Part shown: positions 14,975 to 31,572 of the stretch, piece by piece | Layout: every line of letters begins with the position of its first letter | Position numbering within the stretch: the stretch's first letter is position 1 | Source of the DNA: an uncultured bacterium | Lineage (GTDB): Bacteria; Acidobacteriota; HRBIN11; JAKEFK01 | Direction: 5' to 3' | Length of the DNA stretch: 64,000 bases | NCBI GenBank assembly: GCA_963777505.1 | Contig: CAVZQN010000004.1 | Span: forward strand, 800,001 to 864,000 | Made by a program: the position numbers and the translations under genes | The notes under the pieces: generated by a model | Told to the model about the DNA's origin: nothing | The model's input: the letters and a program-made list of their open reading frames with translations, nothing else | Database searches by the model: none

Positions 14975-17666
14975 ATGAGACAAAAAAGGCTGAGCCCCTG
15001 GAGAAGTCGATCAGCGTGTTCGCCAGATTTATAAGGAAGTCATTCGAGATCCACGAAAAGCGCTGATTTTGGCGAACCAGGGACTTTCCGAATCGCGAGC
15101 GGAGCGCCTGGCTGTTGGAGTTGCAAAGATGACTTTGGCGCGCGCACATTGTTTTCGCGAAATTGGTAATTTCAGCAAATCACTTCGTGACTACACTCAC
15201 GCGGCTAAATTGTTCCGGCGCCAAAATATGATTGATGAGTCCTGGCGCACATCCATCGGGAAAATGGATGCCCTGGATCAAATGGGACGTTACAAAGAAG
15301 CTCTTTCACTTGCGAAACGTACAGCAGACTATTTTAAAAGCGCCGGCCGTCCTTATTGGGAAGCAAAAATTCTTGCGAATACAGGAAATATTTATCAACA
15401 CCTTGACCGCTATGACCGCGCTCTTCACTTCTACAAGAAGGCGTATCCAGTACTTTCGCGCGAGCAGCCCGGTGATGGATTTATTTTGTTGTTTAATCAA
15501 GCGACCACTTATCTGTGCGCCGGTCATCCACAGGAAGCAATCAATTTATTGAAGGAATGTCTTCAGTATTTTCAGCAACAAAATCTCACATCATTTCTTG
15601 CGCGAACTCATTACAATCTCTCCTATGGTTTTTATCTTCAAGGGAAATATCAGGACGCTCTCTTTCATTTAACAGAAGCGCGGAATCGTCTCATTCGCTT
15701 GAAAGACTGGAGTTTTCTCGGCTCTTGTTATCTTGATGAAGCAGAAATTTATTTGCGGCTGAATCAAGTGGATGAAGCGATTGCAAGCGCTCGAAAAGCG
15801 CGAAAGTTTTTTCTGAAACTCAAAATGCCGTATGAGCTGGCTGAAAGCAACTCATTTCTCGGTATCTCGCTGATTCGCCAGGCTGCCATAAAAGCCGCGT
15901 TCCCTTTTTTGAATGAGGCTCGTCAATTTTTTTCAAAACAAAAAAATGCAATCAAAACCGCTGAAATGGACTCGCATCTCGCATTGGCTTTTTTGAAACA
16001 AAACAATCTGAGTGAAGCCAGGACTCATTTAATCAAGGCTTTTCGAACGTTTTCTAAGGCGAGAATCCATTCCAGGATGCTATCCATAAATACGTATCTC
16101 GCTCAAATTGAGATTTCACAGGGCAACATCCATAAGGCTTTAGCGCTTTTGAAGAAAAGTACAAGATGGATTTCTGAAATCCATCTTCCATGGGTGCTGT
16201 TGCCGTTTTATTTAACTTTGGGACAGGCTCAGTTGAAAGCTGGGATTGCAGGGGGCAGAAAATCACTGGATCGCGCCATCCGATTGATTGAATCGATGCG
16301 TTCTGAAATTCCAGCTGAAGATCTTCGCATTTCATACTTTCAAGACAAACTGCTTCCGTATCATTTGTTAATTGAACAGGATTTGAAAAGCAGTGAACCA
16401 AAAAGAATTGAACGCAGTTTTGAATATGCTGAACGAGCTCGCTCGCGGGTATTGCAAGATTTGCTGGAAGGCGCATTACATTTTGAAAATTTGGAAACTG
16501 ATTCAGCAAAATTAGCGGCAGAAGTGAATGCAATGCGTAGCGAAAGTTGGCGGCGAACGCTTGCTGTCAGCGCAGAACCAGACAAGGCGAAAGACCACAG
16601 AGCCGAAAAACGACTCATTCAAATCTTGCGCCGTGCGCAACGCATGCGCAAAGACTATGCAGCGTGGTCTCCAAAGATCAAAGATATTCAGAAGTTGCTG
16701 CTCCCGCGCCAAACGCTGTTAAGTTATTACAGGATTGGAGAAGCAATTCATGCATTCGTTCTCAATTCAAAAGGGGTTCGTGTTTATCCTGAGATTGCAA
16801 AGAACAGCGAACTCATTTCATCCTGGCATTTTTTCCGTTTTCAGCTTGAATTAGGCAGAACAGATCCTGGAAATTCTTTAAAGGCCTGTGATACTCATCT
16901 TGCGGGGCTTTACTCAAAACTTGTTGAGCCTTTAATGGATCAAATCGAGACCTCTGACATTCTTACAATTGTCCCGCATGGATGGCTTCATTCATTTCCA
17001 TTTCATACGTTGAAAGATGAACACGGCTATCTCGTAGATCGTTTCATGATTTCGTATGCGCCAAGCATTTCTGTTTATTCACATTGCCTGCAACGGAAAA
17101 CCTCCGCGAAGGATGTTCTTGTTTTTGGACATTCCGATTCGAAAGCTCCATGGATCGATCATGAAATTCGCGAAATTCATTCGATTTATCCGAAGGCTCA
17201 AATATTTTCCGGCGCTCTAGCCAGTGCAGATCAGCTTCAGGAAGAAAGCAAAAATGCGGGGATTATTCATATTGCAAGTCATGGACGGTTCCTTCAAGAT
17301 CAGCCATTTCTCTCAGGAATTCATCTTGCAGATGGATGGCTCACTCTTCCGCAAATTTATCAAATGAAACTGAATGCCAAACTTGTTACATTGAGCGGCT
17401 GTGAAACTGGAAGCAACGAAATCACAACCGGTGACGAATTGCTTGGATTAACTCGTGGTTTGCTTTATGCCGGCGCATCTTCTTTGCTTGTAAGTCTATG
17501 GCGAGTTTTTGATGCCTCAACCGCGCAGTTTATGAAGGCTTTCTATTCAGCGCTTTCTTCCGGTTCCTCAAATATTGAAGCATGGCATCATGCCGTATTG
17601 GAAACAAAGAAGGAGTGGCCGCATCCATATTACTGGGGACCCTTTGTTCTCATGGGGAAGATTTAA
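14975..17666 (+). CDS. TPR-CHAT (caspase-like) protease; likely true start at 14975 with a 1-nt frameshift near 14995 (track ORF begins 15069)
   Basis: TPR repeats, AERARSRVL, IVPHGWLHSFPF, catalytic HIASHG and LSGCETG, HPYYWGPF. Confidence 0.88.
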
Positions 17667-20693: not shown

Positions 20694-21145
20694 AACCTGC
20701 AGTTCGCAAAGTGAGCTTAGACTCAAACCATGCGGGTGTGAGCGCCTGGATCCGTTTGATTAAGGCTTACAATCTCGTGTTGCGGAAAGCACGAGGCCGT
20801 TTAACCGAATGCACATTATCGCAATTTGATGTAGTTGCGCATCTCGTCCGCGAAAAAAACGGTATGACTCCTGTGGAATTGTCCCGCAAATTGCTTGTAA
20901 CGGCCGGCAATATCACAGGATTAATCGATAGAATGGAAAAATCTGGATTAGTACAGCGCATTCGTGACACAAAAGATCGCCGAACAATTCGAATTCAACT
21001 TACGGAAAAAGGCCGCAAACTCGCAAGCCGTGTCATTCCAAGACATTCCGCGGATATTGAATCAATCTTTACTGCACTGAATGAAGCAGAAAAAAATCAG
21101 CTTCACAAGACGCTTGATAAACTGATCCTTTCGTTGGAAAAATGA
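20690..21145 (+). CDS. MarR family regulator
   Basis: QFDV, ELS..LLVTAGNITGLIDRME, DRR, LTEKG. Confidence 0.92.
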   Translation: MKPAVRKVSLDSNHAGVSAWIRLIKAYNLVLRKARGRLTECTLSQFDVVAHLVREKNGMTPVELSRKLLVTAGNITGLIDRMEKSGLVQRIRDTKDRRTIRIQLTEKGRKLASRVIPRHSADIESIFTALNEAEKNQLHKTLDKLILSLEK

Positions 21146-21957
21146 TGAAAGTAAAAAGTTTTGAATTCACAATCAAGGACGGAATCGCTCGAATCTTTCT
21201 TAATCGTCCTGAAGTTTACAATGCAATTACTTTCGATGTTTATCGCGAGATGTCTGATCTTTTTCTAGAACTTCGTTCGGATCCTGAAACGAAAGTTGTC
21301 ATTATCAGCGGAAAAGGCAAAGCTTTTTGCAGTGGTGGTGATGTACGAGAAATTATTGGTCCATTATTGGATCATGGTGAAGAGGAACTGCGAAAGTTCA
21401 CGCGTCTCACATGCGATTTAATCTGGAATATGCGAATGCTGCCAGTGCCGGTGATCGCCAGCCTGAATGGTGTTGCGGCTGGTGCGGGCGCTATGATTGC
21501 AATCGCATCCGACTTTCGCATCGCAGTAGAGAATGCAAAAATCGCTTTTCTTTTCGTACGTGTAGGTCTTTCCGGTGCGGATATGGGTGCCTGTTATCTT
21601 CTTCCAAAGATTGTTGGCCTTACCAAAGCAACTGAACTTCTAATGACTGGTGATTTCATTTCAGCTCAAGAAGCTTACCGGATCGGCTTATATAACAAAG
21701 TTGTTTCACCAGAAGAGCTTGATGAAGCGGTTCTGACACTGGCGCAGCAGCTTGCAGAAGGACCTTCGACTGGACTCGCCGTAACAAAACAGCAAATCAA
21801 TCAAGAAACTTTACCTGAATTAAGGAAGGCTCTGGATGAGGAAGAAAAAGCACAAGCGCGATGTATGATGCATCCAGACTTTCGCGAGGGATATGCTGCA
21901 TTTACTGAAAAACGAAGACCTTCATTTCAACCGCGCAGGATCCCAGAGGAGTCATAA
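21142..21957 (+). CDS. Enoyl-CoA hydratase/crotonase family protein
   Basis: AFCSGGDV, GVAAGAG, VGLSGADMG (type found in anthraniloyl-CoA clusters). Confidence 0.9.
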   Translation: MMKVKSFEFTIKDGIARIFLNRPEVYNAITFDVYREMSDLFLELRSDPETKVVIISGKGKAFCSGGDVREIIGPLLDHGEEELRKFTRLTCDLIWNMRMLPVPVIASLNGVAAGAGAMIAIASDFRIAVENAKIAFLFVRVGLSGADMGACYLLPKIVGLTKATELLMTGDFISAQEAYRIGLYNKVVSPEELDEAVLTLAQQLAEGPSTGLAVTKQQINQETLPELRKALDEEEKAQARCMMHPDFREGYAAFTEKRRPSFQPRRIPEES

Positions 21958-23061
21958 ATGATTGATCCTCTGCCGCATGAATATGAGCTCTTAGCGACAA
22001 TCGTTAAGAACTTTTTTTCAAAAGAAGAATATCAACAAGAAAACCAGCTTCCTGAGTTTTGCCGAAAATTAATTCGAGCAATGGGAGATCACAAGCTGCT
22101 TGATTATGTCGCGCCTTCGCCTTCTTCGCGCAACCTATGTTTTCTGCGTTACTCTATCGCGCAATACTCCGCGCTCGCAGATCTTTTGTTTGCCATGCAG
22201 GGACTTGGAAGCTTCCCGATTTCGATTGCTGGAAATGAGGAACAAAAACAGAAATATTTAGCTGCAGTTGTTCGTGGCGAAAAAATTGCAGCATTCGCAA
22301 TGACTGAACCGGAAGCGGGTTCCGATGCAGGCGCAATGCAGATGCAAGCTCAAAAAAAAGAAGGTGGTTATGTTCTGAATGGAACTAAAACCTTGATTAG
22401 TAATGCAGGACTTGCGGACTTTTACACGATTTTCGCCCGCACCTCCACCGGACAGCGCGGCATTTCCAGTTTCATTTTAGATGCAGACAACCCGGGAATT
22501 AAAATAATTCCGATGGAATTGATGGGAGCTCATCCGATCGGCCGCCTGGACTTGAAAGATTGTTATGTGCATGAAAGAAATCGTTTAGGTGCTGAAGGAG
22601 ACGGATTGCGGATTGCAATGAGCACACTTGATGTTTTCCGCTCAAGTGTCGCGGCTGCTGCAATAGGAATGGCCCAAAGAGCTTTTGAGGAAGCAATTTC
22701 TTATTCAAAAAAAAGAAAACAGTTTGGCAAATCCTTATCCGAATTTCAGGGAGTTCAATTTAAGATCGCTGAAATGGCTACGGCATTAGCTGCGTCGAAA
22801 AGTCTTGTTTGGCATGCCGCATCTCGCAAAGACTCAGGAGCCCGAACTAATCTTGAATCCGCAATTGCTAAAGCATTTGCAACCGAATCAGCTCAACAGA
22901 TCATTGATCAATCGTTGCAAATCCATGGAGGGATCGGACTGTTGAAGGGTTCAATTACAGAAAGACTCTACCGGGATGTGCGAGCGCTGCGGATTTATGA
23001 AGGCGCAACAGAAATTTTGAAATCGATTATTGCGGCCCATTATCTGAAGGAGGATGCGTGA
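21958..23061 (+). CDS. Acyl-CoA dehydrogenase
   Basis: FAMQGLGS, AFAMTEPEAGSD, QIHGG, RIYEGATE. Confidence 0.92.
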   Translation: MIDPLPHEYELLATIVKNFFSKEEYQQENQLPEFCRKLIRAMGDHKLLDYVAPSPSSRNLCFLRYSIAQYSALADLLFAMQGLGSFPISIAGNEEQKQKYLAAVVRGEKIAAFAMTEPEAGSDAGAMQMQAQKKEGGYVLNGTKTLISNAGLADFYTIFARTSTGQRGISSFILDADNPGIKIIPMELMGAHPIGRLDLKDCYVHERNRLGAEGDGLRIAMSTLDVFRSSVAAAAIGMAQRAFEEAISYSKKRKQFGKSLSEFQGVQFKIAEMATALAASKSLVWHAASRKDSGARTNLESAIAKAFATESAQQIIDQSLQIHGGIGLLKGSITERLYRDVRALRIYEGATEILKSIIAAHYLKEDA

Positions 23062-23768
23062 ATACCTTCCGTACTGCAGCGGACCTGCCTCAGGATTACA
23101 AGCATCTTTTGTCTCAGGTACTGCGTAATCAAGCCTATTGCGAAATGGCTTCCGCAAACATGCTGGGCCATTCACTGAAATTCATCCCAGAGTTGTATTA
23201 CAAAATTGCTGCAACGCAGCAAATTGGAGAAGAGCTTGAAAGATTCACACAGATCGCGCGTATCTATGGTGAACTAACAGACGGAAAAGATTTATTTGAT
23301 GATCCCGATCCGCGCCTTTTTAATATTCCATATGCTGAAAATTGGTTTGAACTTTCAATGGTGCAGTTTTTATTCGACCGCTCGTGTGAGTTTCACCTTC
23401 GTGAATACATGAATTGCACATTCGAACCATATGCAAATCTTGTGAAGGCTCTCATTCGTGAAGACAAACTAAACGGCGGCTTCGGAGAAAAAGTATTAAA
23501 GGAATATTGCCAGTATTCAACCAACCGGGGCGAAGCTCAACGCATTTTTGATCAATGGTTTCCAATTGCACTTGAAAATCTGGGATATATGGATCCTTCG
23601 CGTGAATTGCTTGCAATCAAACATGGGATGAAGAGCCGTGAGTCGGGGGCTGTGATTCAAGATTTTATTTCGCAGATAAAACCTGCCATGCGCGAATGCG
23701 GATTGACTTTCAGAACGCTTGATGACCTGGAGACGCCACTTCCCGCAGATTTGGATCTTACGGTATGA
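23058..23768 (+). CDS. PaaA/PaaC-like ferritin-fold protein with degenerate di-iron motifs
   Basis: LPQDYK, QAYCE, EELER, LFDR, FEPYA, REDKLN, QWFP..LE.LG pattern; no His in either ExxH position. Confidence 0.6.
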   Translation: MNTFRTAADLPQDYKHLLSQVLRNQAYCEMASANMLGHSLKFIPELYYKIAATQQIGEELERFTQIARIYGELTDGKDLFDDPDPRLFNIPYAENWFELSMVQFLFDRSCEFHLREYMNCTFEPYANLVKALIREDKLNGGFGEKVLKEYCQYSTNRGEAQRIFDQWFPIALENLGYMDPSRELLAIKHGMKSRESGAVIQDFISQIKPAMRECGLTFRTLDDLETPLPADLDLTV

Positions 23769-23790
23769 AAACGTAAAACGTATTGGTCTT

Positions 23791-25245
23791 ATGAAATTAT
23801 TCACTCCTTTCACGATCAACGGAATGACACTCCCCAACCGTTTTGTGCTTCCAGCAATGGTGACACGACTTTCTGGCGAAGATGGATTTGTAAATGAAGA
23901 TATCAGACAACGTTACATCCGATTCGCAAAAGGGGAGCCTGGTTTAATTGTGATTGAAGCCATGGCAGTTCATACGGCTAAGAGTGGTCCGCTTTTGAGG
24001 CTAAGTGAAGATGCGCATATTCCTGGACTGTCAGCGCTTGCGAAAGAGATCCACGAAATCAGTCCATCAAAAGTTGTTCCGCAAATCATTCATTTTTTAA
24101 AAATCGCGCGAAGTGGTTGGCGGCAGAAGATCAAAGATTTATCGCACGATGAAATCCGCTTTATTGTAGAAGCCTATGCTGCATCTGCCGAGCGTGCGCG
24201 CCGAGCCGGATTTGATGGCGTTGAACTTCATATGGCGCACGCATATACGCTTTCTTCCTTTTTGTCTTTGCGCAATACACGCAACGACGAATATGGACGC
24301 TCTCTTGAAAATCGGATGCGGTTGATGACTGAAGTTATTTCGGCTGTACGCTCCCGAATTGGATTTGATTTTCCACTGGGTATCCGTTTTGATGGCGAAG
24401 AATGTATTAAGAACGGTTACACACTCAACGATTCGAAAAAGATGGCTTTACGAATGGCGCAGCTTGGTGTTGATTACATCAGTATTTCTGCCGGCGGAAA
24501 ATTTGAAGATGCTATTCACAAACCTGGAGATCCACTCTACCCATATACAGGCTATTCCGGTGATCGTTGTATGCCATCTTCAAATTATCCGGATATGGCA
24601 AACACGTATCTGGCAAGCGGCATTAAAGATTTTCTGATCCAAAACGGTTTTTCACTGCCAGTTGTAACGACAGGAAAAATTCGGACACCTGATCAAGCAG
24701 AAGAAATATTGCAACAGGGTCATGCAGACCTGATAGGAATGGCACGCGCATTGTTAGCTGATCCTGATTTGCCTCGTAAGGCACGTGATGGACGATCGGA
24801 TAAAATCATCTGGTGCACCTATGGGAATGTCTGTAAGAATTTGGATGAGAATTTTAGAAAAGTTACATGTGTGTTGTGGCCCAAAGGAAGTCTTCAAGCA
24901 CCAGAAAGTTCTGATACAACGCCTCCGGTTTGGCCCGAGAAAGGTGCAGCATTAACGGCGGAGTATCGAATCGGTCAAGTTTTTTTGAAATGGAGTGAGG
25001 CTTCAGACAATGAAGCGGTGTATGGATACGAAATTTATAGAAGTGTAAATAAGGATAAGCCAGTGCATCTAGCAACAGTGAAGCGCAATACACATTATGA
25101 TTTGAGTGTTGCGGGCGGCGAAGTATACAGCTATTTTGTTGTTGCATATGATCTTGCAGGAAATCGTACGGAGCCATCGAATATCGTGAATGTGGAAATA
25201 AGGCCAGGCAGTCGCGGATGCGGGGATCGGAGACCGGCCCATTAG
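23791..25245 (+). CDS. NADH:flavin oxidoreductase (OYE family) with C-terminal fibronectin type III domain
   Basis: LPNRFVLPAM, GFDGVELHMAHAY, ARALLADPD; DTTPP..W..ASDN..YEIYR..AYDLAGN; start re-placed at MKLFTPF. Confidence 0.85.
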   Translation: MKLFTPFTINGMTLPNRFVLPAMVTRLSGEDGFVNEDIRQRYIRFAKGEPGLIVIEAMAVHTAKSGPLLRLSEDAHIPGLSALAKEIHEISPSKVVPQIIHFLKIARSGWRQKIKDLSHDEIRFIVEAYAASAERARRAGFDGVELHMAHAYTLSSFLSLRNTRNDEYGRSLENRMRLMTEVISAVRSRIGFDFPLGIRFDGEECIKNGYTLNDSKKMALRMAQLGVDYISISAGGKFEDAIHKPGDPLYPYTGYSGDRCMPSSNYPDMANTYLASGIKDFLIQNGFSLPVVTTGKIRTPDQAEEILQQGHADLIGMARALLADPDLPRKARDGRSDKIIWCTYGNVCKNLDENFRKVTCVLWPKGSLQAPESSDTTPPVWPEKGAALTAEYRIGQVFLKWSEASDNEAVYGYEIYRSVNKDKPVHLATVKRNTHYDLSVAGGEVYSYFVVAYDLAGNRTEPSNIVNVEIRPGSRGCGDRRPAH

Positions 25246-25315
25246 AGGCCCGGGTTTAACGCGCGGCGGGTCCGCAAACCCGGGCCTCAAGTGACAGATC
25301 CGAGGCGCAAAGATA

Positions 25316-26503
25316 ATGGATGAGTTGCTGAGTTTACGATCAGAGTTTCCGATTTTAGAAACAACAACGTACATGATCAGCCATTCTCTTGGTGCTATGC
25401 CCCGGAAAGTTTACGATCGTTTACGTGAATTTGCTGATACATGGGCAACTCGCGGAATTCGTGCATGGGCCGAAGGTTGGTGGCAGATGCCGGTTACGAC
25501 CGGAAATAAGCTTGCCTCTTTGATTGGCGCTCAACCCGGCGAAGTCGTGATGCATCAAAATGTTTCTGTTGCAGTCTCAGTCGTTTTATCTGCATTGAAG
25601 TTTAACTCGCCAAGGAATCGTATTCTTTATCTTGATGTTGAATTCCCTACAGTGATTTATGTTCTGGAAGCGCACCGTCGCCATGGGGCGGAAGTCATTT
25701 CAATCAAATCTCCTGACGGTCTGGAAGTTCCATTAGAAGCCCTCATCGATGCAATTGATGAACGCACATTGATCGTGCCTTTGTCTTATGTTTTTTTCAA
25801 AACATCTACACGGATTGATATCGAAAGAGTTGTAAAAAAAGCGCATGAACATGGTGCATATGTTCTTTTAGATGCATATCAGGCGACCGGAGTTGTGCCG
25901 ATTGATGTAAAGAAATGGGATATTGATTTTCTCGTTGGCGGCTCTGTGAAGTGGCTTTGCGGCGGGCCAGGCGCTGGATATCTATATGTAAAGCCTTCGT
26001 TGTACTCATTGATTGAGCCCACCGTTACAGGATGGGTAGCACACGAACATCCATTTGCATTTGAAACAGGCGCAATAAAATATGCAAAAGATAGCATGCG
26101 TTTTTTGCATGGATCGCCACAAATTCCAGTTTTCTATGCAGCCGAACCAGGCTATGACTTGATCAATCAAGCAGGAGTGGATCGGATCAGAAAAAAATCG
26201 GTCGAGCAAACCACACGAATGATACAACTGTGTGATCAACGTGATTATAAGATTCAAACACCGAGGGATTCCGAAAAGCGGGGTGGAACGATTGTTGTCG
26301 ATGTTCCATATGGAGATGCTGTCGTAAAAGAATTGTCCGCTCGAAATATTCTTGTCGATTATCGCCCAGGCGCTGGGATCCGCATTTCACCGCATTTTTA
26401 TACACTGGATTCCGAAATCGATCAGACTTTTGAAGCGATCGATGAAATCATCAAATCAAAATCGTACGAGAAACATTTGAATCAACGAGGAAGCCAATAT
26501 TAA
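25316..26503 (+). CDS. kynU: Kynureninase
   Basis: SHSLGAMP, DAYQ, GGSVKWLCGGPG; adjacent to TDO. Confidence 0.85.
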   Translation: MDELLSLRSEFPILETTTYMISHSLGAMPRKVYDRLREFADTWATRGIRAWAEGWWQMPVTTGNKLASLIGAQPGEVVMHQNVSVAVSVVLSALKFNSPRNRILYLDVEFPTVIYVLEAHRRHGAEVISIKSPDGLEVPLEALIDAIDERTLIVPLSYVFFKTSTRIDIERVVKKAHEHGAYVLLDAYQATGVVPIDVKKWDIDFLVGGSVKWLCGGPGAGYLYVKPSLYSLIEPTVTGWVAHEHPFAFETGAIKYAKDSMRFLHGSPQIPVFYAAEPGYDLINQAGVDRIRKKSVEQTTRMIQLCDQRDYKIQTPRDSEKRGGTIVVDVPYGDAVVKELSARNILVDYRPGAGIRISPHFYTLDSEIDQTFEAIDEIIKSKSYEKHLNQRGSQY

Positions 26504-26508
26504 TGTTT

Positions 26509-26549
26509 GTAGTAAGGGACGCAGCCGAGCGAATGCGAGGCAGTGCCGT
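26509..26549. repeat. Partial copy of REP-like family B
   Basis: GTAGTAAGGGACGCAGCCGAGCGAATGCGAGGCAGTGCCGT matches 45730 and the reverse of 56428-56527. Confidence 0.7.
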
Positions 26550-26558
26550 TTATAAAAT

Positions 26559-27344
26559 ATGAAAGACGATTACGGAAAGTCACAACTCACGTACAACGAA
26601 TATCTCAAGGTTCCTGAACTGCTGAAACTACAGCGCTGCCTTAGCGATCCAGCTTCGCACGATGAATTGCAATTCATCATTACTCATCAAGCATATGAGC
26701 TGTGGTTCAAGCTCATGCTTTTCGAGATTGATACGATCAAAGAGCGCATGAACGGCGGCGATGTGCGTACTGCGGTGTGGTTGTTCCGGCGTGTCAATGC
26801 GATTGCGAAATTATTAATTCAGCAAATTCATATTTTGGAAAGCATGAGTCCGCTCGATTTTCTTGAATTCCGCGGAAAGCTAAACCCCGCGAGCGGCTTT
26901 CAATCCGTACAATTTCGAGAAATTGAGTTTGTTTCCAATCTGAAAAATGAAGCCCTCATGACGCATCTCAAAAGCGACCCTGAGACAATGGCAAAACTTC
27001 AGAAGCGTTTTAATGAACCAACGTTGTGGGATGCATTCCTGGAATTATTGAAGAAAAACGGTTTTGAAATTCCAGAGGATCGTAACAGTGAAGCGATTGC
27101 GAAAGAACTCGCCCGGCTGCATAAAGAATCTGAGAAACATTACGATCTGTTTGCGTTATCAGAAGAGATGATGACTTTTGATGAATCCATTGGACTCTGG
27201 CGCATGCATCATGTTCGGATGGTTGAGCGCATGATTGGAAATAAAATAGGCACTGGCGGAAGTGAAGGTGTACGGTACTTAACCACAACCATAACTAAAA
27301 AATGTTTCCCGGAACTCTGGGACGCTCGTACATACTTGGAGTGA
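26559..27344 (+). CDS. kynA: Tryptophan 2,3-dioxygenase
   Basis: HDELQFIITHQAYELWFK, SGFQSVQFR, RMIG.KIGTGGS. Confidence 0.96.
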   Translation: MKDDYGKSQLTYNEYLKVPELLKLQRCLSDPASHDELQFIITHQAYELWFKLMLFEIDTIKERMNGGDVRTAVWLFRRVNAIAKLLIQQIHILESMSPLDFLEFRGKLNPASGFQSVQFREIEFVSNLKNEALMTHLKSDPETMAKLQKRFNEPTLWDAFLELLKKNGFEIPEDRNSEAIAKELARLHKESEKHYDLFALSEEMMTFDESIGLWRMHHVRMVERMIGNKIGTGGSEGVRYLTTTITKKCFPELWDARTYLE

Positions 27345-27380
27345 CCCACAGGAGGGCGGGCGTCTCTGCCCGCCATAAAA

Positions 27381-28115
27381 ATGTCGTTATATTGGGAAGA
27401 ACACAGCTGGACTGATTTACAAGAGCGAAAGCCTCAAGTCGTACTCCTTCCGATCGGTTCAGTTGAAGCGCATGGCCCACATTTGCCGCTCGCGACAGAT
27501 ACAATTATTTCTGGTGAAATGGCGCGGCGCTCCGCGCTGGAATTACAGCAAAAAGGAATCTATTCATTAATCCTTCCCCCATTGCAGTATGCGGTCACCG
27601 ATTTCAGCCGTGATTTCCCCGGAACAATTACAATCCGGAAGGAAAATTTTCAAAACATACTAAAGGATATTTGTAATGCGCTTCGTGATACTGGAATTCC
27701 TGTATTGTGTGTTGTGAATTCTCATTTGGAGCCTGCACACATCAATGCAATCCATGATGCGATTCGTGAAATCAAAGGGATCCGGGTTGTGTTTCCTGAT
27801 AAAACTAAAAAACCGTGGGCTTCCTTGTTAACGCCAGAATTTAAGCAAGGAGCTTGTCACGCCGGATGTTATGAAACGTCTCTTGTACTTGCAGCACGCG
27901 AGGAGCTTGTTCGGAATGAACGTGCGAATTTGCCTCCGAATCCAGTTAATCTCGCAGTATTAATGAAGCAAGGTGTAAGTACATTCAATGAAGCAGGTGC
28001 CCCGCAAGCATATTTTGGTGATCCAGCCGCTGCATCGATTGAAGAAGGGGAGCAAACATACGAAATTCTCACTCGCATGATCGTCGAAAGCGTTCTGAAT
28101 TCACTTAACGATTAA
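27381..28115 (+). CDS. Creatininase-family amidohydrolase
   Basis: PIGSVEAHGPHLPLATD, NSH, HAGCYETS, GDP. Confidence 0.9.
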   Translation: MSLYWEEHSWTDLQERKPQVVLLPIGSVEAHGPHLPLATDTIISGEMARRSALELQQKGIYSLILPPLQYAVTDFSRDFPGTITIRKENFQNILKDICNALRDTGIPVLCVVNSHLEPAHINAIHDAIREIKGIRVVFPDKTKKPWASLLTPEFKQGACHAGCYETSLVLAAREELVRNERANLPPNPVNLAVLMKQGVSTFNEAGAPQAYFGDPAAASIEEGEQTYEILTRMIVESVLNSLND

Positions 28116-28135
28116 ATCGACTGTTTGCTTTTGCT

Positions 28136-28762
28136 TTAATTAAAAACGTATTCGTAACCACTCGCTCCGAGAGGAAAATCTACAATCGAATAAGATAACC
28201 CACATTTTTGAAGTATCCCTGTTACAAAAGAATTGCTGTTCGGACCTTTCTTTGCTCTAAAGTCATATTGAAATTTTGAATTATTAAATTCCTTTGTAAG
28301 GCTTCGCAAACAATCAATTTTGAAACATGGAATATCGTTGTTCCTACTGCATTGAAGGCATCGTTCATCTTCTGCGAGCGAACCATTCAGTCTGACTTGC
28401 CATGAGGCGATCCTGCTGCGCTTTCTTGGATCCGGACCTGCAGTGAATTTGACTGCAATAAGTTCCTCATGCCGGTTATCGCTGGTAATTATGTAGCAAT
28501 GTATGGATGGTATAAGGGCTCCAGTCGGCCGGCAAAAAATATTCAAACTACATTGACCAGGATTACTGAACCATCCAACTGTTCTATTTTTAGGCGCAGA
28601 AATGAAAGTATTTTCAACTTTCATTAACGAAGTTTCGCCCATAAAACGTTCAATTGGACGCTCAAGTATTAAATTGTCTGAACCTGAAACCGCCTGGTCT
28701 TTCGGCGGGATGTATGCGAAAAGGACTAAAATTATTAGAAAGACAACGTAAAGGCCCCTCAC
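28136..28762 (-). CDS. Exported DUF3750-like protein (permuted papain-like fold, Ser in place of Cys)
   Basis: GTG start at 28762 with GAGGGAG RBS; N-terminal hydrophobic helix; HCYI ... GPNSNSFV ... GASG. Confidence 0.5.
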   Translation of the reverse strand: MRGLYVVFLIILVLFAYIPPKDQAVSGSDNLILERPIERFMGETSLMKVENTFISAPKNRTVGWFSNPGQCSLNIFCRPTGALIPSIHCYIITSDNRHEELIAVKFTAGPDPRKRSRIASWQVRLNGSLAEDERCLQCSRNNDIPCFKIDCLRSLTKEFNNSKFQYDFRAKKGPNSNSFVTGILQKCGLSYSIVDFPLGASGYEYVFN

Positions 28763-28960
28763 ATCTACGGCTCCCTCATCGCAATTATACAATTTGTACC
28801 AATTCGAGAAAACTGGAATGAAATGAGACATCCAGTACCTCAAAAAATCAACATCTGTACAGAAAATAACACACATTTGGTTAGCATTTTGTAGGACCCT
28901 TTTGAGGTTTCTGTTGTCTAAGTATAGATAGAAGTAAGATTTACAAGATTATTGCAATAC

Positions 28961-28976
28961 TGGCATCGTCTTTGCT
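28961..28976 (+). promoter_or_regulatory. sigma54 (-24/-12) promoter candidate
   Basis: cTGGCATCGTCTTTGCT, exact GG-N10-GC, 34 nt before ATG 29010. Confidence 0.75.
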
Positions 28977-29009
28977 TAGCTAATAAGCGATTGGAAGTTA
29001 GGAGGCGAA

Positions 29010-29180
29010 ATGAGAAAACGGAAGAAATTGTCTCTAGGTGATTTAATTGCAGCTCTTTTTGAGGAATCTAAGAAAGTGACGACCGATCGACTCGAGCAGA
29101 ACTTGCTTGTTTATGCAGCTTTACGGGATTTATTGCGTACAAAAGTTATTAGCGTACGGCCGATAGCGATCCGGGCATAA
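29010..29180 (+). CDS. Small basic protein (56 aa), paralog 1
   Basis: Not in ORF track; AGGAGG RBS; MRKRKKLSLGDLIAALFEESKKVTTDRLEQNLLVYAALRDLLRTKVISVRPIAIRA; core 25/32 identical to paralog 2 by hand alignment. Confidence 0.88.
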   Translation: MRKRKKLSLGDLIAALFEESKKVTTDRLEQNLLVYAALRDLLRTKVISVRPIAIRA

Positions 29181-29183
29181 TTT

Positions 29184-29274
29184 AGGAATTTTATTCCTTA
29201 TGGTTTATCCCCTCCTGGATAAGAACATGGACGTGGCCGTTCGATCTTGACTGAGGTCGGACGGCCTTTCTTTT
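29184..29274 (+). ncRNA. Candidate 3'-UTR structured RNA/sRNA, copy 1, ending in an intrinsic terminator
   Basis: AGGAAT/ATTCCT hairpin; TTATCC-CCTCCT-GGATAA hairpin; GGCCGTTCG...CGGACGGCC-TTTCTTTT. Confidence 0.55.
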
Positions 29275-29308
29275 AGCAACATTTATACAGTGATACCGAT
29301 AATTTGAA

Positions 29309-29336
29309 TGATCCGAAATGAATTCTGGATCGTACT
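29309..29336 (+). promoter_or_regulatory. ECF sigma promoter candidate (RpoE/ChrR-type motif)
   Basis: TGATCC-N16-CGTACT just upstream of paralog 2. Confidence 0.55.
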
Positions 29337-29361
29337 TAATAAGAAGAATATGGAGAATGCA

Positions 29362-29547
29362 ATGAGAAGCAAAAAACATTCGGTTCGAGTAACAGTTGGT
29401 GAGTTGATTGAAGCATTATTTGATGAAACAAAGAAGGTGACACGGAACCGGATGGAACAAAATCTTCTGGTATATGCAGCCCTCCGTGATCTTGTAAAAG
29501 GACGCAGATTACGTCCTGTTCCAGTTCGTTCAAAATACACGCATTAA
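29362..29547 (+). CDS. Small basic protein (61 aa), paralog 2
   Basis: GGAG RBS; MRSKKHSVRVTVGELIEALFDETKKVTRNRMEQNLLVYAALRDLVKGRRLRPVPVRSKYTH. Confidence 0.88.
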   Translation: MRSKKHSVRVTVGELIEALFDETKKVTRNRMEQNLLVYAALRDLVKGRRLRPVPVRSKYTH

Positions 29548-29552
29548 TTCTG

Positions 29553-29639
29553 AGGCGGAGTGATGCCCGCCTATCCATTCCTGGATAGAATGTTACAATT
29601 CTGAGCCGTTCGCAGATTGCGGACGGCTTTTCTTTTTTT
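29553..29639 (+). ncRNA. Candidate 3'-UTR structured RNA/sRNA, copy 2, ending in an intrinsic terminator
   Basis: AGGCGG/CCGCCT hairpin; CTATCC-ATTCCT-GGATAG hairpin; AGCCGTTCGC...GCGGACGGCT-TTTCTTTTTT. Confidence 0.55.
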
Positions 29640-29667
29640 ACCTCACAGTTTAATATTCAGATCTATC

Positions 29668-31572
29668 ATGAAACCGTTTTACATCACTACGCCCATTTAC
29701 TATGTAAATGGACTGCCTCACATTGGACATATGTTTACGACAATCCTGTCCGATGTGATCGCGCGTTATCATCGATTGCTTGGGGATGATGTTTATTTCT
29801 TAACCGGAACCGATGAGCATGGTGTGAAAGCCGAAAAAGCTGCGCTTGAGCTTGGAATTCCCCCGCGCGAAATGGCAGATCGCATCGCTCTCCCATTTAA
29901 GGATCTTTGGAAGCGGCTCAATATCGACTTCTCTGATTTCATTCGCACAACAGAACCACGCCACTATGAATCGGTAGCCGAACTTTGGAAACGATGCAAA
30001 CAGAATGGCGATATTTATTTAGGTGAATATGAAGGTTGGTATTGCACGTTCGAGGAAGCATTCTGGACAGAAGGTCAACTGGTTGAAGGAAAATGCCCGG
30101 ATTGCGGACGTCCTGCGGAACGAATCAAAGAAGAAAGTTATTTTTTCCGTCTTTCAAAATATCAAGAGCCGCTTTTAAAACACTACCGAGAGCACCCCGA
30201 TTTCATTTTTCCGCGTAAGCGTTTCAATGAAGTTATTAGTTTTGTAGAAAGCGGTTTGCGCGATCTGAGTGTCAGCAGAGTCCGGTTGAAATGGGGAATA
30301 CCAGTTCCTGATGATCCACGTCATGTGATTTATGTCTGGTTTGATGCTTTAACAAACTACATTACAGGCGTTGGATTTCCATCGAATCAGGAAATGTTCA
30401 AACGCTACTGGCCTGCCAAGTTACACATGATTGGCAAAGATATTGTGCGTTTTCATGCTGTATATTGGCCCGCGTTTTTGCTTTCAGGTGGAGTCGAGTT
30501 GCCGAAACAGCTTTTGGTTCATGGCTGGTGGATGAAGGATGATACGAAAATCTCAAAGTCGCGCGGAAATGTAGTCGATCCAGAAACGCTGATCAACACA
30601 TTTGGTGTTGATGGCTCGCGATATTTTTTAACGCGTGAAGCTCCTATTGAATCGGATAGCACTTATGATTTCGATAGTATCTTGAAGCGTGTTAATAGTG
30701 ATCTTGCAAATGATCTTGGGAATCTTGTGAGCCGCTCGCTGACAATGGTTCATCGTTACAATGCAGGTGTAATTCCTGAGGCACAACCTGGCTCAGCTCC
30801 ATTTCAGGCTTCACTTGAAAAAATCATCACTCATTTGGAAACCTCAATTAAAGATTTTGCATTTCCTCGTCTACTTTCAGAAATCTGGGGCGTTGTGAAT
30901 GCGATGAATCGATACATTGTTGATGAACAGCCCTGGACACTTGCGAAGGATCCCACAAAAACTCAAAGCCTGAATAATGTTTTGTATAACACAAGTGAAG
31001 GACTCAGATTGATTGGAGGAATGATTGCTCCGGTCATACCCGCATCAGCCGATGCTTTGTGGAAACAACTGGGTCTAAAAAAAGCAGCATCACACGCAGT
31101 GATGGACGATTTGCGGTGGGGACAGTTGCAGCCAGGTACAAAACTTGAGGAAGTGTCGCCATTGTTCCCAAGAATCGAAATCAAAGGAGAGGAAACGGTG
31201 GAAGATCAACAGCCAAAAACAGAAGAGAAACCAGTAGAACCGGTGCAAGAAAGAATTTCGATTGAAGACTTTTTGAAAACAGGATTGCGTGTTGCGGAAG
31301 TAAAAGCAGCCGAGAAAGTTCAAGGTTCAAAAAAGCTGCTGAAGATCACCGTTGATCTTGGTACTGAAGTGCGAACAGTTGTTGCAGGAATTGCTGATGC
31401 ATATGCACCTGAAGATCTGGTTGGCAAACAAGTCGTGGTTGTAACGAATTTGAAGCCTGCCAAATTAATGGGAATCGAGTCGAATGGAATGATTTTGGCT
31501 GCAACGCTGGATGGCAAACCCGTTTTAGTCTCGATTTCAGCTCCTGTTCCGAATGGAACGACGGTAAGATAG
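29668..31572 (+). CDS. metG: Methionine--tRNA ligase with C-terminal tRNA-binding domain
   Basis: ITTPIYYVN..PHIGH, YVWFDAL, KISKS, OB-fold tail; start re-placed at MKPFY. Confidence 0.97.
   Translation: MKPFYITTPIYYVNGLPHIGHMFTTILSDVIARYHRLLGDDVYFLTGTDEHGVKAEKAALELGIPPREMADRIALPFKDLWKRLNIDFSDFIRTTEPRHYESVAELWKRCKQNGDIYLGEYEGWYCTFEEAFWTEGQLVEGKCPDCGRPAERIKEESYFFRLSKYQEPLLKHYREHPDFIFPRKRFNEVISFVESGLRDLSVSRVRLKWGIPVPDDPRHVIYVWFDALTNYITGVGFPSNQEMFKRYWPAKLHMIGKDIVRFHAVYWPAFLLSGGVELPKQLLVHGWWMKDDTKISKSRGNVVDPETLINTFGVDGSRYFLTREAPIESDSTYDFDSILKRVNSDLANDLGNLVSRSLTMVHRYNAGVIPEAQPGSAPFQASLEKIITHLETSIKDFAFPRLLSEIWGVVNAMNRYIVDEQPWTLAKDPTKTQSLNNVLYNTSEGLRLIGGMIAPVIPASADALWKQLGLKKAASHAVMDDLRWGQLQPGTKLEEVSPLFPRIEIKGEETVEDQQPKTEEKPVEPVQERISIEDFLKTGLRVAEVKAAEKVQGSKKLLKITVDLGTEVRTVVAGIADAYAPEDLVGKQVVVVTNLKPAKLMGIESNGMILAATLDGKPVLVSISAPVPNGTTVR

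Follow-up and report, generated by a model that had tools for sequence, protein, structure and literature searches.

The question raised by the locus described here is why two small, related genes with folded 3' ends stand in tandem before metG, what drives each of them, and whether they yield one product or two. The locus lies in a stretch of 64,000 nucleotides (nt) from an uncultured bacterium of the Acidobacteriota (NCBI GenBank assembly GCA_963777505.1, contig CAVZQN010000004.1, positions 800,001 to 864,000 of the forward strand). This whole stretch is called the window; positions are counted from its first letter, and the two genes with their control regions are called unit 1 and unit 2. 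Members of this phylum abound in soil, and hardly any of their regulons have been mapped by experiment. The reading favoured below, and taken to be moderately probable, is that of two tandem, separately terminated genes coding for a stress-related small regulator, of which unit 1 would be driven by sigma-54 and unit 2 by a promoter of its own.

Locus organisation and the sigma-54-type promoter of unit 1

Two small plus-strand open reading frames (ORFs) are flanked by a creatininase-family gene and by metG (Table 1). The mechanical ORF list includes the unit 1 ORF; the unit 2 ORF has further in-frame ATGs at 29308 and 29350. The paralogy of the two products exceeds chance (31 of 59 positions identical, 53%, BLASTP E 1e-20), and the 32-residue core with 25 identities that had been described earlier was recovered on the BLASTP alignment, where it starts at G10 and includes EQNLLVYAALRDL.

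Relatives were located in a scan of 185,579 species-representative genomes, in which 222 pattern matches were obtained, 11 of them encoding relatives (loci L001–L011; 2–3 loci per genome). A six-frame search of the window and these 11 loci with a hidden Markov model gave 14 family members. Two settings were distinguished, namely metG-linked (the window and L001–L005) and stress-cluster (L006–L011). Unless stated otherwise, pattern counts refer to the window and the 11 loci taken together (255,038 nt). When the coding sequences were compared with those of L001, 114 of 171 positions were identical in unit 1 (67%), with 33 of the 57 differences at third codon positions, and unit 2 was 71% identical, with 30 of 54 differences at third positions. 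This excess points to coding constraint on both ORFs.

Unit 1 is preceded by TGGCATCGTCTTTGCT, which agrees with the extended sigma-54 consensus used (TGGCAC-N5-TTGCW) at 15 of 16 positions, with a single mismatch. In the window alone, seven sites match this consensus with at most one mismatch, versus 2.74 expected. The pattern TGGYAY-N5-TTGCW occurs seven times in the 255,038 nt, both strands counted, and each of the seven sites precedes a family gene, at 22–37 nt from its start codon (window unit 1, L001–L005 and L011, i.e., the six metG-linked loci and one paralogue). The box is thus present in 6/6 metG-linked loci, although the proteins encoded there are only 59–74% identical to that of unit 1. 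The association is far beyond chance. Because of this 7/7 specificity and the exact GG-N10-GC geometry, sigma-54 dependence of unit 1, as had been claimed, is strongly supported by the sequence comparison and is the best-supported statement of this report.

An ACAnnTGT palindrome with an A-tract, ACATCTGTACAGAAAA, is found farther upstream, and the same combination occurs 66–110 nt upstream of the box in five of the six metG-linked loci. Since the pattern was defined after the data had been seen and has nine further matches elsewhere in the 255,038 nt, the element is suggestive only, as a candidate site for an activator or a bending protein.

In the favoured reading, sigma-54 RNA polymerase would transcribe unit 1, the metG-linked copy present in six genomes, from 28961–28976; such transcription would entail dependence on an enhancer-binding activator and, through it, on a signal. 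The resulting mRNA would be monocistronic and about 290 nt long; its 3' hairpins and terminator would stop transcription before the next gene and would probably shield the message from 3' exonucleases. Unit 2 would be an older tandem paralogue, most likely transcribed from the block at 29276–29303, to which read-through from unit 1 may add to some extent. The protein would oligomerise, bind nucleic acid or another protein, and may serve as a small regulator in a stress or dormancy programme; this last role is suggested because paralogues head or sit in operons of the general-stress type.

Table 1. Features of the locus, with positions in the window.
Feature	Position	Strand	Remarks
Creatininase-family gene	27381–28115	+	Upstream flank
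Upstream element ACATCTGTACAGAAAA	28851–28866	+	ACAnnTGT palindrome and A-tract, 110 nt before the −24 box
Sigma-54-type promoter TGGCATCGTCTTTGCT	28961–28976	+	TGGCAT-N5-TTGCT; GG 28962–28963, GC 28974–28975, exact GG-N10-GC
Shine-Dalgarno AGGAGG, unit 1	29000–29005	+	Sequence read directly
Unit 1 ORF	29010–29180	+	56 aa, basic; predicted helices at residues 9–23 and 27–45
Unit 1 hairpins 1 and 2 of the 3' untranslated region (3'UTR)	29184–29229	+	Predicted fold; CCUCCU in the loop of hairpin 2
Unit 1 intrinsic terminator	29235–29274 (stem 29235–29266)	+	14-pair stem and T-run
GCAACA-N16-GATAAT	29276–29303	+	Sole conserved block of the inter-unit spacer; candidate unit 2 promoter
Box TGATCC-N16-CGTACT, resembling extracytoplasmic function (ECF) promoters	29309–29336	+	Within a 30-nt segment absent from L001; probably no promoter
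Shine-Dalgarno GGAG, unit 2	29352–29355	+	L001 orthologue has GGAGG at equal distance to its ATG
Unit 2 ORF	29362–29547	+	61 aa from ATG 29362; distinct subfamily, RPVPVR-type tail
Unit 2 3'UTR hairpins	29553–29602	+	Three in the minimum-energy fold
Unit 2 intrinsic terminator	29603–29639 (stem 29603–29629)	+	12-pair stem and T-run
metG, methionine--tRNA ligase	29668–31572	+	Pfam tRNA-synt_1g, E 3e-114; context, outside the module

Protein sequence and predicted fold

An alignment of 98 members follows the pattern of a basic N-terminus, h-p-L-G-[DE]-L-I-x-A-L-F-E-E, a short loop and E-Q-x-x-L-V-Y-A-A-L-K-D-L-L, and ends in most of them with V-x-x-x-H-P-I-x-L; the median net charge is +7. In the AlphaFold2 model (23 sequences, mean predicted local distance difference test score 82.6), the two helices of Table 1 are formed, residues 1–8 of the monomer are coil, and the tails are less confident. 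The protein is accordingly modelled as a basic two-helix hairpin. Conserved hydrophobic positions of helix 2 span more than one face and suggest oligomerisation, and the net charge suggests nucleic-acid binding.

No named family had been recognised earlier for these proteins, and none was found to fit: searches against Pfam, NCBIfam and PADLOC with the window proteins and with sets of 23 or 98 family members returned sub-threshold hits only. Comparison of the AlphaFold2 model with the PDB by Foldseek gave three matches, all with E >5 (best 5.6). Designed PPR repeat proteins, which came up in a profile search of the PDB, were rejected as the sum of stretches of about 5 bits each with per-stretch E >90.

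The alternative that survives best, rated rather unlikely, is that the product is a minimal ribbon-helix-helix-type (VapB/CopG-like) DNA-binding repressor of its own and of other stress promoters. VapB_antitoxin (PF09957) is a recurrent weak match (at E<=1 for 9 of the 98 members, with a best E of 0.0025; 2 of 23 in the smaller set), a conserved basic-hydrophobic-polar-hydrophobic-Gly segment precedes helix 1, the two helices have the typical length, and several members are first in their operon. Against these points, every hit stays under the curated cut-off, the AlphaFold2 monomer contains no strand and found no Foldseek match of that kind, and neither a PIN domain nor any other toxin gene adjoins any of the 14 members.

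Structured 3' ends

Both units were originally predicted to end in a terminator of their own, and the stems and T-runs at the two sites bear this out. A terminator search of the region found three candidates versus 1.4 expected, one of them in each unit, and at both sites a G+C-rich stem is followed by a T-run, as is required of Rho-independent terminators. The 3' regions of units 1 and 2 fold beyond chance (z −4.21 and −4.63; 0 of 200 shuffles equal), with two hairpins plus the terminator in unit 1 and three plus the terminator in the minimum-energy fold of unit 2. The hairpin TATCCnnTCCTGGATA is common to the two units: with at most two mismatches it is matched three times (0.35 expected), and the two exact matches are the units themselves. 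They also share the terminator core GCCGTYCG...CGGACGGC, which is found nowhere else in the window and in one other locus only. The possibility that the terminator stem is a dispersed repeat was rejected, as it is confined to these units.

The same layout recurs among the relatives. All eight metG-linked 3' regions are strongly folded (z −3.6 to −7.9), and in each the terminator is preceded by one or more hairpins; the stress-cluster copies have no such region, and their ORF runs directly into the next gene. A structured, separately terminated 3' end is a conserved trait in the architecture of the metG-linked copy. The unit 1 hairpin segment of the window agrees with that of L001 in 50 of 53 ungapped columns, versus 63% identity for the upstream DNA, and does not vary at all over the 42 nt of 29192–29233, loops among them. 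In L001 the upper part of the unit 1 terminator stem differs with pairing kept. The unit 2 hairpins are 85% identical in ungapped columns, versus 71% for the coding sequence. In L003 and L004 the 29-nt terminator hairpin is identical, and the coding sequences are 69% identical. As judged from these alignments, sequence constraint acts on the 3' end in two lineages or more, and the predicted short mRNA has a 3' end more conserved than its coding part. The minimal reading would be termination and protection of a short mRNA; the invariant loops, CCUCCU among them, may leave room for a role in base-pairing or protein binding.

Such a role was considered in two forms. In the first, which is unlikely, the conserved 3'UTR would itself be the regulator, either as a released small RNA (sRNA) acting with its CCUCCU loop on Shine-Dalgarno sites or as an autoregulatory protein-binding site. 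The 42 invariant nt, set against 67% identity in the coding sequence, the display of CCUCCU in the loop of hairpin 2 and the precedents of GlnZ and of dual-function RNAs speak for this possibility. The element is not common to L002–L005 or to the operonic paralogues, however, and no sequence or structure motif was found to be common to all metG-linked 3' regions. The loop is not retained in unit 2 of either the window or L001. Rfam provided no acceptable match even at E<=10 (four matches, E 0.66–7.4, all far under the gathering scores). When both 3'UTR elements were scanned for duplexes with 53 start regions, no credible target emerged; the single outlier of the scan, at 27356–27374, was rejected as trivial cross-pairing between GC-rich hairpins. 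A protein-binding site would account for the palindromic DNA equally well. Of the regulatory RNA originally claimed, local conservation of the 3' region between close relatives has been confirmed, and a family-wide motif, an Rfam match and a credible target have not been found.

The second form, distinctly unlikely, would make the metG-linked unit a sigma-54-induced bifunctional transcript that yields a small basic nucleic-acid-binding stress protein of a new class together with an invariant 3' hairpin effector, the tandem copy giving the same pairing under a different promoter. In such a transcript, the CCUCCU loop would mimic the anti-Shine-Dalgarno sequence, and the released sRNA would block ribosome-binding sites, or the hairpin would provide a docking site for the protein.

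Family distribution and genomic neighbourhoods

A HMMER search over 1.84 billion representatives yielded 30 proteins at E<=1e-3, and a profile search of a 5.8-billion-protein set gave 2842 candidates, of which at least 214 clusters reached E<=1e-3. None of the 120 clusters listed bears a curated name; the names are "hypothetical protein", three automatic BolA-type designations (JGI records) and one "sterol carrier". All contigs of L001–L011 are titled Acidobacteriota or "uncultured bacterium". No account of this family was found in the available portions of the Acidobacteria literature on sigma-54 or small proteins. By these searches, it is an unnamed and undescribed family of small proteins (about 55–63 aa), encountered here in Acidobacteriota and unclassified metagenome-assembled genomes only.

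In the metG-linked setting, metG follows immediately downstream in the window, L001, L002, L004 and L005; the contig of L003 stops before any metG. A creatininase-family gene is located upstream, with or without an intervening DUF975 gene, in the window, L001, L003 and L004, and the order creatininase gene, family gene(s), metG is found in the window, L001 and L004. In L005 the creatininase gene is farther upstream, with a minus-strand subtilase gene between, and in L002 the ORFs upstream match no family.

In the stress-cluster setting, stress-type genes start about 1–75 nt after the family gene or surround it. The neighbours are CBS, BON and SOD (L006); DUF6600 and ferritin-like (L007 and L008); ferritin-like and DUF3309 (L009); DUF1328, BON and CsbD (L010); and DUF2383, Hsp20 and a larger protein with a receiver domain (L011). 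Ferritin-like genes occur in four of these six loci and BON genes in two; single-domain response regulators are encoded nearby in L007, L008 and L010. In other phyla, domain families of this kind are typical members of general stress regulons. With paralogues in clusters of such genes, a stress connection is plausible for the family. The stress module of the original prediction is plausible to that extent.

The ferritin-like genes also bear on the proposal that the protein is a truncated BolA/IbaG-like factor in iron-sulfur or glutaredoxin-linked stress control, which is improbable. They stand near four of the six stress-cluster paralogues, the three JGI names point the same way, and BolA (PF01722) is the commonest weak match (19 of 98 members at E<=1, best E 0.0021), residues of about 27–52 being aligned constantly with profile positions 42–67 of 76. 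These matches score 12.6–15.2 bits versus a cut-off of 25.7 and cover one third of the domain, and since the matching members are close relatives of one another, their number is not a count of independent cases. A comparison by hhalign with Escherichia coli BolA and IbaG gave E 0.24 and 0.35, respectively, with probabilities <1%, the single-sequence templates having low power (the search for IbaG homologues had retrieved sequences >=75% identical to IbaG, nearly all >80%). In column 50, His is replaced by Arg in both window copies.

In L004 (2983–3255) the family ORF extends to 91 aa, with homology ending near residue 58; the stop codon seems to have been lost or shifted relative to L003.

Unit 2 and the inter-unit spacer

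The tandem duplication of a small-protein gene with a structured, terminated 3' end was correctly predicted, and the pair, followed by metG, is kept in L001. It is present in these two loci only (L002, L004 and L005 have a single copy; L003 ends too early), and its occurrence in both indicates that it is older than the split of the two organisms. A maximum-likelihood tree built from 18 members unites the unit 2 type in a clade (support 99/95) that consists of unit 2 of the window, unit 2 of L001, four metagenomic proteins and one long-branch row that is possibly misplaced; its members have a different tail, of the RPVPVR type. The products of units 1 and 2 are distinct paralogues and not redundant copies. 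The claim that both units give the same output is not supported, since unit 2 falls in a subfamily of its own, which the tree supports well and whose C-terminal tail differs.

The original prediction held that a peptide plus regulatory RNA module had been duplicated in such a way that sigma-54 and an RpoE/ChrR-type ECF sigma factor give the same output. This is now very improbable. Both boxes do occur in the window, the sigma-54 half is strongly supported, and the 3' regions are folded and locally conserved. The ECF half does not hold. L001, with the same tandem pair and metG, provides a direct test of the ECF-like box, and its alignment lacks the 30 nt that contain TGATCC-N16-CGTACT. No such box was found before the other 13 family members of the window and the 11 loci, and the loose pattern TGATC-N16-19-CGTA has six matches in 255,038 nt, of which only the one at unit 2 precedes a family gene. 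The window ORFs that were scanned include no rpoE-chrR pair. From these comparisons, the box looks like a chance match and not the unit 2 promoter. Of the parts originally assigned to each unit, the ribosome-binding site, the small basic protein and the folded 3' end stand, and the ECF promoter of unit 2 is not supported. The window-specific insert has features of its own: it holds the inverted repeat GATCC-N12-GGATC (29309–29330), and it resembles the TCCTGGAT core of both 3'UTR hairpins.

Unit 2 is not preceded by a sigma-54 box. In the spacer, the window and L001 agree fully over AGCAACATTT and ACCGATAA, and the remainder diverges; the resulting block, GCAACA-N16-GATAAT, is most likely the better candidate for the unit 2 promoter when set against the ECF-like box. 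Given the strong unit 1 terminator, read-through is unlikely to be the main source of unit 2 transcripts. A two-part promoter motif shared by the seven upstream regions without a sigma-54 box was not found above the level of shuffles, and no common two-part motif joins unit 2 to the other copies of this kind.

It is scarcely credible that the small ORFs encode leader peptides and that the hairpins attenuate metG: the position directly upstream of metG is kept in L001, L002, L004 and L005 and terminators lie between the ORFs and metG, but the protein is conserved across at least 214 clusters and is found away from metG in six loci, there is no methionine run (unit 1 has no Met besides its initiator), the predicted folds include no alternative anti-terminator, and Rfam gave no match to a T-box or another leader family.

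Other observations in the window and loci

No Shine-Dalgarno site precedes the metG start ATG (29668) in the 29640–29670 region, and a conserved TAATATTC stands about 10 nt before metG in the window and further upstream in L001 (3640–3715), which suggests that the metG leader may be very short or absent. The gap between the creatininase gene and unit 1 (28116–29009) is about 700 nt longer than in L001 and contains a minus-strand ORF of 246 aa (28136–28876) with no significant family match; in L003 and L004, a DUF975 gene is found at this position.

The pattern [CT][GTA]AC[AG]-N18-CGATA[GTA] has 10 matches in 255,038 nt versus about 2 expected, nine of them in stress-cluster loci (L006:2905, L007:1967, L008:2895, L008:869, L008:934(−), L008:3217(−), L009:1902, L010:2708 and L011:5020; the tenth is window:46820). 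The pattern was derived from five of these matches, so that only the other five are independent. The sites include positions upstream of family ORFs or of their operons, and the L010 and L011 copies, as well as the L006 and L008 copies, are alike beyond the pattern. It may represent the promoter of an alternative, perhaps general stress, sigma factor.

The co-directional run at 21142–28115 (+) encodes enoyl-CoA hydratase, acyl-CoA dehydrogenase, PaaA/PaaC-like proteins, an old-yellow-enzyme-type reductase, a kynureninase-like aminotransferase, tryptophan 2,3-dioxygenase and the creatininase-family protein, and resembles a cluster for tryptophan/kynurenine degradation. In L001, too, the last three genes of this run precede the family gene; in L004 two of the three do so. 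An edge-cut ORF at 1–795 (−) has a weak N-terminal match to the CBASS Cap12 NAD+ hydrolase (81.5 bits versus a cut-off of 450), and an 865-aa TPR protein at 15069–17666 (+) has a C-terminal match to Csx29 (TPR-CHAT; 64 bits versus a cut-off of 300).

Assessment of the proposed model

Several results count against the model of a sigma-54-driven unit 1 and a separately expressed unit 2 encoding a stress-related regulator. Seven of the 14 family members have no sigma-54 box, and sigma-54 control is therefore no family-wide rule; the test of relatives proposed earlier came out in favour of the sigma-54 box in half of the members, and turned up neither the ECF box elsewhere nor a shared 3' motif. 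The ORFs scanned in the 64-kb window and the loci include neither rpoN nor a gene for an activator. The unit 2 promoter candidate is based on only two related sequences. With respect to the 3' end, L002 and L005 are 83% identical in this region versus 86% in the coding sequence and so have no extra 3'UTR conservation, and the 42-nt invariance between the window and L001, loops included, exceeds the needs of a stabiliser. The stress reading is based on the family names of neighbours, and Pfam, NCBIfam, PADLOC and the PDB gave no significant match to the protein.

For a specialist in bacterial regulation, nothing in this locus is extraordinary, and the claim of two sigma factors with one output does not hold. 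What it offers is a single, undescribed family of small proteins to which a sharply delimited sigma-54 promoter is linked. This family is an entry point, as a reporter for a presumed enhancer-binding activator and its signal and as a candidate regulator of stress or dormancy.

Relation to known systems

With VapB and other ribbon-helix-helix proteins (PF09957) the family shares its size, the two predicted helices, the basic N-terminus and, in some loci, the first place in an operon; it differs in scores under the cut-off, in having no partner toxin and in a model without a strand. With BolA/IbaG (PF01722) it shares a local similarity of helix 2 and the tail to profile positions 42–67 and, by name, a connection to stress; here too the score is under the cut-off, two thirds of the domain are missing and the hhalign result is not significant.

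SgrS/SgrT, AzuCR, VcdRP and Spot 42 are RNAs that base-pair with targets and also encode a small protein (PMC2760806, PMC8915982, PMC8672173, PMC8916003). The predicted unit 1 transcript is likewise short (about 290 nt) and combines a small ORF with a separate conserved structured segment, and the ORF is under coding constraint, as would be expected of a dual-function RNA (third-position excess; 214 clusters). The known ORFs comprise 15–43 aa and base-pairing has been shown by experiment; here the ORF has 56 aa, base-pairing of the segment is hypothetical, and, unlike the dual-function RNAs, the ORF has paralogues in ordinary operons that have no RNA part.

GlnZ is an sRNA released from the 3'UTR of the NtrC-dependent glnA mRNA in enterobacteria (PMC9731577; bioRxiv 10.1101/2022.04.01.486790). 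The likeness would consist in an mRNA that belongs to the regulon of an enhancer-binding protein and in a 3'UTR that, up to the terminator, is more than a terminator. GlnZ differs in that glnA encodes an enzyme and the ORF considered here a 56-aa protein; Rfam indicates no sequence relation.

A further parallel is with sigma-54 (RpoN) promoters that have activator sites. Described systems of this kind differ from unit 1 in the gene that is driven, which here encodes an unnamed small protein. Measured against the extended consensus, the window box has GG and GC doublets exactly 10 nt apart and agreement at 15 of 16 positions. The candidate upstream element, suggestive only, is found 66–110 nt from the box in five of the six metG-linked loci.

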